Part shown: piece by piece, positions 4,938 to 18,118 of the stretch
Layout of the letters: every line of letters starts with the position of its first letter
Numbering within the stretch: position 1 is the first letter of the stretch
Source of the DNA: a virus
Lineage: Duplodnaviria; Heunggongvirae; Uroviricota; Caudoviricetes
Length of the DNA: 20,074 nt
IMG/VR virus record: IMGVR_UViG_2663763227_000012
Strand: one strand, 5' to 3'
The notes under the pieces: model-generated
What the model saw: only the letters and a program-made list of their open reading frames with translations
The model's database searches: none
What the model was told of the DNA's origin: nothing
Position numbers and translations under genes: made by a program

Positions 4938-4995
4938 AAAAAGGGCGGCAGAGCAGTCACGGAGTAAAACTGATACCGCCAAACGTCACCAGAAA
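4938..4995 (-). ncRNA. dicF: DicF small regulatory RNA (ftsZ-targeting sRNA)
   Basis: Reverse complement of 4938-4995 reads TTTCTGGTGACGTTTGGCGGTATCAGTTTTACTCCGTGACTGCTCTGCCGCCCTTTTT, the DicF sequence with its terminal GC stem and U-tail. Lies between ydfC and dicB as in Qin. Confidence 0.85.
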
Positions 4996-5869: not shown

Positions 5870-5949
5870 GCTGACCTCATTTCCCCTTAACGCTGGGGTA
5901 GCGGAACTGTTTGCTGAGAACACCGTGCGGTGTGTTGATGCAAACAAGA

Positions 5950-6035
5950 TTAGCCATGACTAACATATCGGTCAAGTGATTTTGTATGCTATAGCTAACA
6001 TAATTGATGTGGTAAAAGATAACTCATTGATGATG
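5950..6035 (-). promoter_or_regulatory. Candidate promoter/operator region of the dicB operon
   Basis: Intergenic between the dicA stop (6036) and the ydfA start (5869). Contains TGACTAACAT (5957-5966) and TAGCTAACAT (5992-6001), related to the palindromes in the dicA-dicC intergenic region, plus a hairpin AGATAAC-N11-GTTATCT (6017-6041) overlapping the dicA stop. Confidence 0.35.
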
Positions 6036-6443
6036 TTATCTTTTATTTGTCCGCTGACGGGCTTTTAGTAATTCTTCAAAGAGTTTATTGAAGTTTTTTA
6101 CTCGAGCTCGCATTTCGGCGAGCTGGGTATCCTGTTCTGATTCTGGCAGTGCATTAAACAGCTCAAGGAGCTCTAGTTCTTTGGGGGATAAGGCAACTGG
6201 CTTCTCAACAGGTGGTGTTGGTTGCTTGTCTTCATCGCCAAATAGAATCCATGTTGGTGAGCATTGCAATACTTTGCTGAGGGCAAAAAGGTTCTTCCCT
6301 GTAGGTTCACTATCACCCCGTTCCCATTGTGATACAGACACATGGGAGATTTTCAGGGCTTTAGCAAGAGACCTTTGGGTGTGTTTGAGGTTTTTCCGAC
6401 GATACCTGATGCGTTCGCCGATAGTTAAATTTTTTGTTTCCAT
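6036..6443 (-). CDS. dicA: Prophage repressor DicA (HTH_XRE, c2/cI-like)
   Basis: 135-aa ORF (METKNLTIGERIRYRRKNLKHTQRSLAKALKISHVSVSQWERGDSEPT...) with an N-terminal HTH, divergent from dicC. Confidence 0.9.
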   Translation of the reverse strand: METKNLTIGERIRYRRKNLKHTQRSLAKALKISHVSVSQWERGDSEPTGKNLFALSKVLQCSPTWILFGDEDKQPTPPVEKPVALSPKELELLELFNALPESEQDTQLAEMRARVKNFNKLFEELLKARQRTNKR

Positions 6444-6526
6444 AGTTAGCTAATGCTAAATCGTATTGACTATGTTTTTGTTAACATCTATCTTGTTAGT
6501 TATGACTAACAATAAAGGTGTTTTAA
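6444..6526. promoter_or_regulatory. Divergent dicA/dicC promoter-operator region
   Basis: 83-bp intergenic region with palindrome TTAGCTAA (6446-6453) and a perfect 8-bp inverted repeat TTGTTAGT-tatg-ACTAACAA (6493-6512), plus a TTGACT hexamer near 6469. Confidence 0.55.
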
Positions 6527-6757
6527 ATGCTTAAAACTGACGCTCTTTTGTATTTCGGTTCAAAAACAAAACTTGCACAAGCAGCAGGTATTCGTTTGGC
6601 TTCGCTTTATAGCTGGAAAGGGGATTTAGTTCCCGAAGGTCGCGCGATGCGTCTACAGGAGGCATCTGGCGGGGAGCTTCAGTATGATCCCAAAGTTTAT
6701 GATGAATATCGTAAGACGAAGCGGGCGGGGCGGTTGAACAATGAAAATCACTCCTGA
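6527..6757 (+). CDS. dicC: Cro-like regulator DicC
   Basis: 76-aa ORF (MLKTDALLYFGSKTKLAQAAGIRLASLYSWKGDLVPEGRAMRLQEASGGELQYDPKVYDEYRKTKRAGRLNNENHS), divergent from dicA. Confidence 0.85.
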   Translation: MLKTDALLYFGSKTKLAQAAGIRLASLYSWKGDLVPEGRAMRLQEASGGELQYDPKVYDEYRKTKRAGRLNNENHS

Positions 6758-7262
6758 ACAGGCTCGTGAGGCTCTGGATGCCTGGATATGTCGACCAGGA
6801 ATGACACAGGAGCAGGCGACGATATTAATCACTGAAGCATTCTGGGCTTTGAAAGAGCGCCCGAACATCGATGTTCAGCGTGTCACATATGAAGGTGGCG
6901 CGATTGATCAGCGAGCGCTTGGCGTTAATCGAGTGAAGATATTTGAACGCTGGAAGGCTATCGACACCAGGGATAAGCGTGAAAAGTTCACGGCGCTAGT
7001 GCCTGCAATTATGGAGGCTATCCGGATTAATGATTTCAGGTTGTATCGTGAAATTACTGACGGAAAAAGCATCACGTGCATGATCGCCGGGTTAAACAAA
7101 GAATATGGCGATGTGGTGGAGTCCGGACTGCTTTTTGCTGATCCTGCCGTAGTGGATCGTGAAACTGACGAACTTATAGAAAAAGCAATTGCTTTCAAAC
7201 TTGCGTATCGACAGCAATACCAACAAAAAGCTGGATGGAATTATGAGCCTTCTTTTTGCTGA
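6741..7262 (+). CDS. YdaT-like early protein (CII-position regulator family)
   Basis: 173-aa ORF overlapping the dicC 3' end. The central segment (ERWKAIDTRDKREKFTALVPAIMEAI) resembles the conserved core of Rac YdaT as recalled. Confidence 0.6.
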   Translation: MKITPEQAREALDAWICRPGMTQEQATILITEAFWALKERPNIDVQRVTYEGGAIDQRALGVNRVKIFERWKAIDTRDKREKFTALVPAIMEAIRINDFRLYREITDGKSITCMIAGLNKEYGDVVESGLLFADPAVVDRETDELIEKAIAFKLAYRQQYQQKAGWNYEPSFC

Positions 7263-8208
7263 ACGCCCACTGGTTATAAACACGCAGCTGGCAATGAAAA
7301 TTGGCTTAAACGAAGCCATTGTTTTGCAACAACTGCACTACTGGTTGAGAGATACCAACTCCGGCATGGAATGTGATGGTGTTCGCTGGATTTATAACAC
7401 AACGGAACAATGGCTGGAACAGTTCCCATTCTGGTCAGAGTCAACGTTAAAGCGCGCGTTTGCAAGTCTGAAAACGCTGGGGCTTTTGCGTTGTGAAAAG
7501 CTCAATAAATCAAAGCGCGATATGACCAATTTCTACACGATCAACTATGGGAGCGAGCTTTTAGATGGTGGCAAATTGAGCGAATCCATCGGTTCAAAAT
7601 GCGCCGCTCCATCAGGTCAAAATGACACGATGGAAGAGGTCAAAATGAAACGCTCCATTGGTTCAAAACGACCCAATGTCATCGGGTCAAAATGGCCTGA
7701 TGATCTTACAGAGAATACAACAGAGATTACTACAGAGAATAAAAACACTTTTCGTCCGGAAGCTTCGCAACCGGACCCGCAGACGACTGAACAGGATTTT
7801 TTAACCCGGAACTCCGACGCGGTTGTGTTTAGTGCGAAAAAACGCCAGTGGGGTAGCAGGGAGGATTTGGCGTGTGCGCAGTGGATCTGGGGGCGGATCG
7901 TGGGTCTCTACGAACAGGCAGCCAGTGATGATGGCGAGATCATGCGACCAAAAGAGCCTAACTGGACTGCCTGGGCCAATGACGTGCGCACAATGCGGAT
8001 GCTGGATGGCAGAAGCCACAGACAAATTTGCGAAATGTTTGGTCGGGTTCAGCGAGATCCATTCTGGGTAAAAAACATCATGAGCCCGTCAAAGCTCCGC
8101 GAAAAATGGGACGAACTGGTCATCCGCCTGGGACGTTCACCTGTACAGCGTTGTGTTAATCATATTTCTGAACCGGATACAGAAATTCCGCCTGGTTTCA
8201 GAGGATAA
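7243..8208 (+). CDS. Phage replication initiator / replisome-organizer-like protein (O-like)
   Basis: ORF 7189..8208; I prefer the ATG at 7243 (MSLLFAERPLVINTQLAMKIGLNEAIVLQQLHYWLRD...), which gives a winged-helix-like N-terminal domain. Internal iteron array and position after the cro/cII-like genes support an initiator role. Confidence 0.6.
   Translation: MSLLFAERPLVINTQLAMKIGLNEAIVLQQLHYWLRDTNSGMECDGVRWIYNTTEQWLEQFPFWSESTLKRAFASLKTLGLLRCEKLNKSKRDMTNFYTINYGSELLDGGKLSESIGSKCAAPSGQNDTMEEVKMKRSIGSKRPNVIGSKWPDDLTENTTEITTENKNTFRPEASQPDPQTTEQDFLTRNSDAVVFSAKKRQWGSREDLACAQWIWGRIVGLYEQAASDDGEIMRPKEPNWTAWANDVRTMRMLDGRSHRQICEMFGRVQRDPFWVKNIMSPSKLREKWDELVIRLGRSPVQRCVNHISEPDTEIPPGFRG
7588..7694 (+). 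repeat. Five direct iteron-like repeats (consensus ~ATCGGGTCAAAATG) at ~23-bp spacing, candidate ori
   Basis: Copies at 7588-7601, 7611-7624, 7636-7647, 7657-7670 and 7681-7694 inside the initiator gene (seen as repeated IGSK in the protein). Confidence 0.55.
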
Positions 8209-10356: not shown

Positions 10357-10690
10357 ATACAGCGAACTCCATTGGTTTAGTTGGATATTTACTGTGCTGG
10401 ACAAAAACGGTTTGCGGGGAAATCTTAGTTAAGTAGAATGACTGCGGGTGCTTGAGGCTATCTGCCTCGGGCATGGACACCAACGGCAGATAGAGAAAAG
10501 CCCCAGTTAACATTACGCGTCCTGCAAGACGCTTAACATTAATCTGAGGCCAATTTCATGCTAGACACATGTAGGTTAGCCTCTTACGTGCCGAAAGGCA
10601 CGGAGAAGCAGGCTATTGTTAACACCAAGCTGTAATGTCCCCTTTGAACCATTCTAAAATGTCCCCAGACAATTCTCTGGGGGATTTTTC

Positions 10691-12004: not shown

Positions 12005-12399
12005 AACCAAGATCGATTCGGTTGAGTGCATATCCATTCATAGGGTAGATTCTTAAGTCGCGTTTCTGGTGTTCATTTTCGGGTGGTTTGTTACTTGTTT
12101 TACCGGGGATATGCCAGAAACGCGCTGAGTCAGTCTGGGCGGTGCGCGTAATGAGGCGTTATGGTAAATAGCCTATGCTAATGTCCGCTAAGAGCAAGAA
12201 GCGGAAGTTGGCAGTTTTGTGGACTGTCCCCACAAAAGTGACTACAGAAATAGTTGCAATTCATAATTGATCATGGGTTGTCAGTTAAACTCGTGGCGAT
12301 TTAAATAGACTAATTGGGAGTGCGTCCATTACTTATATCTTGTAATGTTAACTATCAGAAATGATACAAAGATAATATGTCTTTAAAGAAAAGGCTGAT

Positions 12400-17322: not shown

Positions 17323-17622
17323 AAAAATTCCTTAATACTTATAACTTGGCGCACTATACACACGTTCCTGAAGAAAGCTATAGTTTTTTGATGGGGTTGA
17401 AGATGGCTGGATGTCTAAAATAAACATTGCTTCATATGTTCAACTATGCGTTAATGATTGCGTCGGTTTGAAGAACAGACGATATACGAAGTAGTTTACT
17501 AAAGCAGTTCTCATTTCAGGTGTTATTCACTTATTCCTTCTTTGAGTCTCTCCAATTAAGTACGAAGTCGTTTCTGTTATGCAAACCATTTATGCCGAAA
17601 GGCTCAAGTTAAGGAATGTAGA

Positions 17623-17838
17623 ATGTCAAATAAAATGACTGGTTTAGTAAAATGGTTTAACGCTGATAAAGGTTTCGGCTTTATTTCTCCTGTTGATGGT
17701 AGTAAAGATGTGTTTGTGCATTTTTCTGCGATTCAGAATGATAATTATCGAACCTTATTTGAAGGTCAAAAGGTTACCTTCTCTATAGAGAGTGGTGCTA
17801 AAGGTCCTGCAGCAGCAAATGTCATCATTACTGATTAA
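17623..17838 (+). CDS. cspB: Cold-shock protein CspB
   Basis: 71-aa ORF ([71 protein letters not shown]) with RNP1/RNP2 motifs and a ~300-nt AT-rich upstream region typical of csp genes. Confidence 0.9.
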
Positions 17839-18118
17839 AATTCATCGCTCGTCTGTATACGATAACGAAGAAGGCTGATGCCTGAGTAGAGATACGGACA
17901 GAGTAGTGAATATTGGATCTCTTTAATAAAAAGTAAGGAGGTCCAATACATGAAACAATGGCTAGCATATTTGGCAAAATCTTAATCAGGAAAAGTATGC
18001 TAACCATTGTGGTGAAGTGCAGGTTTGCTGCATGAATAGTTTTACAGCAGAAGCTAACTGCTGGCATGGCAAAACAAAGTGCGTAAGTGGATGACTCCCA
18101 CAAAAAGCACCACAATCT

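Follow-up and report, generated by a model that had tools for sequence, protein, structure and literature searches.

The short space between two divergent regulatory genes of a prophage raises the question of which of its inverted repeats serve as operators, and for which of the two encoded proteins. In the window, i.e. the whole stretch of 20,074 nucleotides analysed here (IMG/VR record IMGVR_UViG_2663763227_000012), these genes are dicA (6036-6443, minus strand), which encodes a CI/C2-like repressor of 135 amino acids and was assigned from its open reading frame and the RefSeq annotation of the identical Escherichia coli ATCC 8739 locus, and dicC (6527-6757, plus strand), which encodes a Cro-like regulator of 76 amino acids (open reading frame and annotation). 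The dicA start codon is the complement of 6441-6443 and the dicC ATG begins at 6527, which leaves a gap of 83 bp (6444-6526); an HTH repressor gene and a Cro-like gene are thus divergent and less than 100 bp apart, as in OR regions of the P22/lambda type. The segment 6000-6800 is 100% identical to that of E. coli ATCC 8739 and 99.9% identical to that of K-12-type strains, in both of which the genes are annotated as dicA and dicC of the Qin prophage, and the whole segment is present in approximately 850 of 5426 complete E. coli genomes. The host locus is a Qin-like lambdoid prophage. Elsewhere in the window, the Rfam matches above the gathering score were DicF sRNA (4943-4994, minus strand, 76.7 bits), sok antitoxin RNA (10446-10617, plus strand, 104 bits) and a cspA-type thermoregulator leader (17462-17854, plus strand, 159 bits), all usual cargo of Qin-like prophages.

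In the Pfam domain search DicA matched HTH_3 (1.3e-16) and gave no match to Peptidase_S24. Its residues 8-70 are 59% identical to the DNA-binding domain of P22 C2 (residues 6-68), and the homology ends at residue 70. DicA belongs to the short, non-cleavable class without the S24 autocleavage domain and is therefore not SOS-inducible; the Rem antirepressor has been reported to relieve it (PMC10448788). DicC matched P22_Cro (1.7e-11) and is 36% identical to P22 Cro. The end of dicC overlaps by 17 nt with a YdaT-family gene (6741-7262, plus strand; Pfam YdaT_toxin, E = 4.5e-5), whose place is occupied by ydfX in K-12 and which is annotated cII in the record of phage PhiR42_1; in the immunity regions of Rac and CP-933P, ydaT is described in the literature as the gene downstream of the Cro-like ydaS.

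For dicC, the promoter scan predicted a promoter at 6466-6494 (plus strand) with a -35 hexamer TTGACT at 6466-6471, a 17-nt spacer and a -10 hexamer TATCTT at 6489-6494, and transcription starts at approximately 6501; 5'RACE on dicC in K-12 places the -11 A within the -10 hexamer (PMC3441716). The dicA mRNA is leaderless in K-12 as determined by dRNA-seq (PMC4681348, Fig. 2A), and dicA is on a list of known leaderless genes (PMC8794815). Because of the 99.9% identity we transferred this start to the window, where the first base of the transcript, the A of the ATG, is at 6443 (minus strand). No -10 or -35 element of dicA passed the consensus promoter scan of the region, Yun et al. give none either, and an RNA polymerase site for dicA was also absent from the Reg-Seq results (PMC7567609).

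The initial annotation proposed that an 8-bp perfect inverted repeat with a 4-nt spacer at 6493-6512 binds DicA or DicC. The repeat, TTGTTAGT-TATG-ACTAACAA, is present exactly there, between dicA and dicC, and as a DicA operator it is the same sequence as the published Oc, being the exact reverse complement of 5'-TTGTTAGTCATAACTAACAA, as Oc reads on the dicA strand (PMC3441716). The core, TTAGT-N4-ACTAA, is at 6496-6509, and the site aligns with OR1 of P22. No second copy of the 20-mer is found in the window when up to three mismatches are allowed (any such match was found in 9 of 100 shuffles), and perfect inverted repeats (arms of 8 nt or more, spacer 0-8 nt) were present in 2.5% of 83-nt sequences simulated with a first-order Markov model of the same composition as the gap. 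With respect to function, Yun et al. (2012) reported that DicA repressed a reporter through Oc in vivo, that a single A-to-C change in Oc (Oc*) abolished DicA binding/repression in vivo, that high-copy clones of the promoter were viable only with point mutations in Oc, and that extracts containing DicA shifted the promoter fragment in EMSA (PMC3441716). Moreover, a reduction of DicA to one tenth raised dicC 700-fold and DicA was required for activity of a dicA-promoter fusion, such that Oc-bound DicA represses dicC and activates dicA (PMC3441716); Reg-Seq also recovered a DicA site at dicC (PMC7567609). Oc spans -8 to +12 of the dicC promoter, beginning inside the -10 hexamer at 6489-6494. We found no difference between the control region and the Oc region of the K-12 Qin (Kim) prophage. 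Oc is thus an already published, experimentally characterised, textbook-level DicA operator and not a discovery of the present analysis.

To describe the variation at these sites we used 81 related loci that represent 49 distinct sequences; per-site counts are based on 47 of these, with the frameshifted L072 and L075 excluded. The 8-bp arms of Oc are not the conserved unit, since only (T)GTTAG and CTAAC(A) are constant in the 49 distinct loci, and positions 6500, 6501, 6504 and 6505 vary within the operator. According to our own mapping of the quoted sequence, the published Oc* mutation corresponds to a T to G change at 6497, which converts TTAG into TGAG; this position of the TTAG core is invariant in the 47 distinct loci.

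The repeat at Oc is part of an extended imperfect palindrome (6483-6500 and 6505-6522, 83% complementary) that folds as single-stranded DNA with -7.7 kcal/mol (z = -3.7), and it could on these grounds be read as a structural element (a cruciform in the DNA or a hairpin in the RNA leader of dicC) instead of a protein site. This reading is extremely improbable in our judgement. The dicC start is in the middle of the palindrome, so the dicC RNA carries one arm only, the A+T-rich stem is weak, conservation is lacking in the outer arms, with 6512-6514 as the most variable positions of the region, and point mutations in the core abolish DicA binding (PMC3441716). We have accordingly rejected an RNA or cruciform role of 6483-6522, on the position of the dicC start and the variability of the outer arms, and treat the repeat as the operator Oc.

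A second, smaller palindrome, TTAGCTAA, was also named as a candidate operator, and it is present exactly at 6446-6453 in the gap between dicA and dicC. It lies inside a larger predicted operator, Oa (6446-6459, TTAGC-TAAT-GCTAA), which was delimited from the shared motif, its conservation and the alignment with P22 OR3, and in this respect the suggestion stands, but its register does not: the relevant dyad axis is at 6452/6453 and not at 6449/6450. Oa and the Oc core TTAGT-TATG-ACTAA have the same 5+4+5 geometry, and the Oa axis is 3 bp to the right of that of TTAGCTAA. As for the possibility that TTAGCTAA is a separate short operator with its own axis at 6449/6450, it is a perfect 8-bp palindrome situated 2 bp from the dicA start codon and it is present in the Citrobacter and Serratia loci; its frequency is however at chance level, as it was found in 29 of 100 shuffles of the window and some spacerless 8-bp palindrome occurred in 42% of the simulated 83-mers. 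A spacerless 4+4 site also misfits an HTH dimer, the proven site having its half-sites 10 bp apart, and the register TTAGC-N4-GCTAA agrees with that of Oc, of the dicB-side site discussed below and of P22 OR3. Furthermore, relatives with DicA proteins of 57-63% identity read TTAGAATTACCTAA at Oa, i.e. TTAGCTAA is lost and TTAG-N6-CTAA is kept, which identifies TTAG-N6-CTAA as the conserved unit and settles the register. A separate operator at 6446-6453 is hence very unlikely, and the TTAGCTAA 8-mer plays no part by itself.

The idea that DicA binds at this palindrome finds no support, since neither Oa nor the middle site Om, cloned separately, was bound by DicA (data not shown in PMC3441716). 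According to Yun et al. (PMC3441716), Bejar et al. (1988) had earlier recognised Om and Oa in this intergenic region purely from the sequence. Our coordinates for the two sites were taken from motif, spacing and alignment with P22 and not from the figure of Bejar et al., and a search of the available papers for the Oa sequence gave no match, with only Oc appearing, in Yun et al. (PMC3441716). The refinements made here are the register of Oa, its placement on the -10 region of dicA, and the finding that its TTAG-N6-CTAA core is kept down to 57% repressor identity.

The motif shared by these sites, TTAGY-N4-RCTAA, is matched perfectly at only three places in the 20 kb, namely 5950-5963, 6446-6459 and 6496-6509, all of which flank dicA. 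The expected number is 0.02, and three copies were reached in none of 100 shuffles. One further match, with one mismatch, at 12168-12181 was discarded as being at chance level (1.9 such matches expected). Within the gap there are two perfect dyads, Oc and Oa, which are 50 bp apart, and between them a degenerate candidate for a third, Om (6471-6484, TATG-TTTTTG-TTAA), which we placed by our own reading of the sequence and by alignment with P22 OR2. The centre of Om is 25 bp from those of Oa and Oc, and it has three core mismatches. The dicC-dicA gap is collinear with the P22 cro-c2 gap, with Oc on OR1, 6470-6485 on OR2 and Oa on OR3. Both divergent promoters are overlapped by operators, Oc covering the +1 of dicC and the Oa core covering -3 to -16 of the leaderless dicA transcript; relative to the dicA start at 6443, the centres of Om and Oc are at -34.5 and -59.5, respectively.

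The evidence on DicC comes mainly from ChIP-seq. A 2024 preprint gives the strongest DicC peak at the dicC-dicA promoter, infers DicC sites on either side of dicA, derives a palindromic motif TT(A/C/T)G...C(G/A/T)AA and reports that induction of DicC lowers dicA 48-84-fold (PMC11430063). Oc, Oa and 5950-5963 read TTAG...CTAA and fit the two half-sites of this motif. The text of a ChIP compendium paper makes no mention of DicA or DicC, and PMC10636207, considered as a source on DicA, is irrelevant as it concerns DcuR and not DicA binding. In a 2025 Reg-Seq preprint, a repressor-like site of the dicC promoter pulled down ArcA and YgbI, and host factors (ArcA and YgbI as well as Cnu/H-NS) may also touch the DNA of the dicA-dicC gap.

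With Oa and Oc 50 bp apart, i.e. beyond the resolution of ChIP-seq, DicC could act through Oc alone, and Oa and Om might then be dead relics of a P22-like ancestor, with both DicA and DicC acting only through Oc. The failure of DicA to bind isolated Oa or Om in vivo (PMC3441716), the degeneracy of Om with its three core mismatches, and the inability of ChIP-seq to resolve Oa from Oc are in line with this explanation. Against it, only 1 of the 14 Oa positions is variable in the 47 distinct loci vs. 41 of 135 third-codon positions of dicA, and a clean TTAG-N6-CTAA is present at Oa in relatives with 57-64% DicA identity and diverged spacer DNA. Oa also sits in the leaderless dicA promoter over the -10 region, where a shut-off of the Cro type needs it, and the 48-84-fold decrease of dicA upon DicC induction (PMC11430063) argues in the same direction. 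We consider it unlikely that the two sites are relics; from its position on the -10 region, its fit to the DicC motif and its correspondence to OR3, Oa is most likely a site for the Cro-like DicC.

Operators that match those of the gap are also found across the repressor gene, at what appears to be a second, PL-like promoter. The third perfect motif copy (5950-5963, TTAGC-CATG-ACTAA), found by the motif search and kept in Citrobacter and Serratia, lies to the left of dicA, towards the promoter of ydfA-dicF-dicB, and overlaps the spacer and the putative -10 of a leftward promoter that we read manually (-35 TTGACC, the complement of 5970-5975; -10 TAATCT, the complement of 5947-5952); the automatic consensus scan made no call for a leftward promoter on the dicB side. 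A second candidate operator, half-degenerate, is at 5985-5998 (TATG-CTATAG-CTAA), 35 bp from the first. Its pattern of variation (positions 5, 6, 9 and 10) is that of Oc and 5950-5963, and its first half, TATG, is outside the DicC motif as published (PMC11430063). Operator pairs equivalent to 5950-5963 and 5985-5998, 35-36 bp apart, were found in the related loci L004, L005 and L090. Three operators at dicCp and three at dicBp have been described for the bistable DicA/DicC switch (Ragunathan and Vanderpool 2023, PMC10448788).

The layout is retained well beyond E. coli. In Citrobacter (DicA 73% identical) and Serratia rubidaea (64%), Oc-like and Oa-like dyads are 50 bp apart and two further dyads, 35-36 bp apart, are present beyond the repressor gene. 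TTAG-N6-CTAA is likewise found at the Oc and Oa positions in a prophage region from an Stx2a phage record (63%; L090) and in a phage fragment (57%), and the former has a near-perfect site also at the Om position, with spacings of 26 and 25 bp. The distant DicA/DicC loci examined for the P22 layout thus keep dyads at equivalent positions, and the arrangement of 2+2 sites is kept in the Citrobacter (73%), Serratia (64%), Stx2a-record prophage (63%) and 57% relatives. For L006 and L007 (DicA identity of 53% and 32%, respectively) the upstream DNA is unrelated and uninformative on operators. A 2.5-kb contig (L003, JAIIUG010000151.1) labelled as a MAG of Collinsella sp. (Actinomycetota) encodes a DicA that is 99% identical to that of E. 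coli, and it is almost certainly an E. coli binning contaminant.

Comparison with known systems places the locus closest to its K-12 counterpart and to P22. The K-12 Qin (Kim) locus (Bejar et al. 1986/1988; Yun et al. 2012) has the same 20-mer, genes and promoter, and differs in carrying ydfX where the YdaT-family gene follows dicC here. With the right operator of P22 immC the locus shares divergent C2-like and Cro-like genes approximately 80 bp apart, what is probably a set of three dyads with a spacing of about 24-25 bp, the -35 sequence TTGACT of the rightward promoter, and a repressor ATG 0-2 bp past the third operator. It differs from P22 in its half-site, TTAG(Y) vs. TTAAG/TAAAG, in the degenerate middle site, and in a repressor of 135 amino acids that lacks the S24 domain, and with it SOS induction, and is relieved by Rem instead; moreover, DicA alone has been reported on only one of the three sites (PMC3441716). 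As in lambda OR, the switch is bistable and divergent, the repressor represses cro and activates its own leaderless gene, and the Cro analogue represses the repressor gene. The operator sequence and the C-terminal domain of the repressor differ from those of lambda, as does the position of the proven activating site, which is near -59.5 of the dicA start, whereas the activating site of lambda is centred near -42. Finally, PaaR2/YdaS/YdaT of CP-933P and RacR/YdaS/YdaT of Rac resemble the dic locus in that the repressor is outside SOS control and its gene leaderless, the operators sit in a short intergenic region, and ydaT comes after the Cro-like gene, while judged by their descriptions they are set apart by other repressor families and operators.

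Taken together, we consider it highly probable that the 83-bp gap is a P22-type OR of a Qin-like prophage, with Oc as the site of DicA, Oa as the probable one of DicC, and matching sites on the dicB side. The three dyads, 25 bp apart and all built on TTAG-N6-CTAA, would make up the right operator region. Since Oc extends over -8 to +12 at the dicC promoter, a DicA dimer bound there blocks RNA polymerase at dicC, and from about -59.5 it also stimulates the weak leaderless dicA promoter, as experiments in K-12 have demonstrated. Oa is positioned on the dicA -10 region just before the ATG, as P22 OR3 is before c2, and by analogy with Cro and OR3, DicC on Oa would most likely shut off dicA after removal of DicA, e.g. 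by Rem. As DicA bound neither Oa nor Om alone, any role of DicA at these sites would need cooperativity, to which the single-site assays of Yun et al. (PMC3441716) are blind; Om, if used, is probably filled only cooperatively. The sites at 5950-5963 and 5985-5998 would give DicA and DicC control over the dicB/dicF operon.

An unusual variant is the frameshifted locus L075 (IMGVR_UViG_2526164632_000027), where the Oc flank is replaced such that perfect arms of 18 nt are formed, AACACCTTTATTGTTAGT-CATA-ACTAACAATAAAGGTGTT. The change covers the equivalent of 6483-6522 in the window and destroys the dicC -10 hexamer, and dicA of this locus has lost one nucleotide from the A-run at its codons 4-5 (equivalent of 6430). 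It looks like a quasi-palindrome template-switch mutation, and the palindrome change possibly compensates for the loss of DicA.

In the 47 distinct loci, variation within the operators affects only 2 of 24 positions of the TTAG/CTAA cores and none of 6 in the central AT. The four central pyrimidine/purine (Y/R) positions per site are all variable in Oc and the two dicB-side operators (12 of 12), as are 17 of the 24 flanking positions located 3-6 nt from the cores, eight of which have at least three alleles; none of the variable dicA third-codon positions has three alleles (operator zones vs. the rest, Fisher's exact test, p = 2e-8). Relative to loci L008-L087, the hypervariable positions are 6500, 6501, 6504, 6505 and 6512-6514 at Oc, 5954, 5955, 5958, 5959 and 5966-5969 at the 5950-5963 operator, and 5977-5979, 5989, 5990, 5993, 5994 and 6001-6003 at the 5985-5998 operator. 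These positions are homoplasic among otherwise near-identical Qin-like loci, and several of the operator sites still differ between loci that show no other difference over 577 positions and encode the same DicA. The central bases of the P22 and 434 operators have reportedly been found by Koudelka and colleagues to modulate affinity without being contacted, and we take the variable central positions of the dic operators to be their counterparts. Non-contacted operator positions may evolve faster than synonymous sites, which we put forward tentatively and as possible rather than probable.

The dic switch may not be confined to prophage remnants. Escherichia phage PhiR42_1 (L088, PV340562.1, 48.7 kb, from E. 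coli ECOR13) carries it at 6918-7500, with dicA (annotated cI), dicC (annotated Cro) and all operators identical or nearly so to those of the window, which suggests that apparently complete phages, too, make use of this 'cryptic' switch. The fast variation of the operators in the Qin-like loci could reflect a local mutational hot spot that arises from quasi-palindrome template switching, an event of which kind, perfecting a palindrome, is seen in L075; alternatively, it could represent recurrent selective tuning of switch strength. If it is tuning, selection might act on, for example, the leakiness of the toxic dicB/dicF operon or immunity against related phages.
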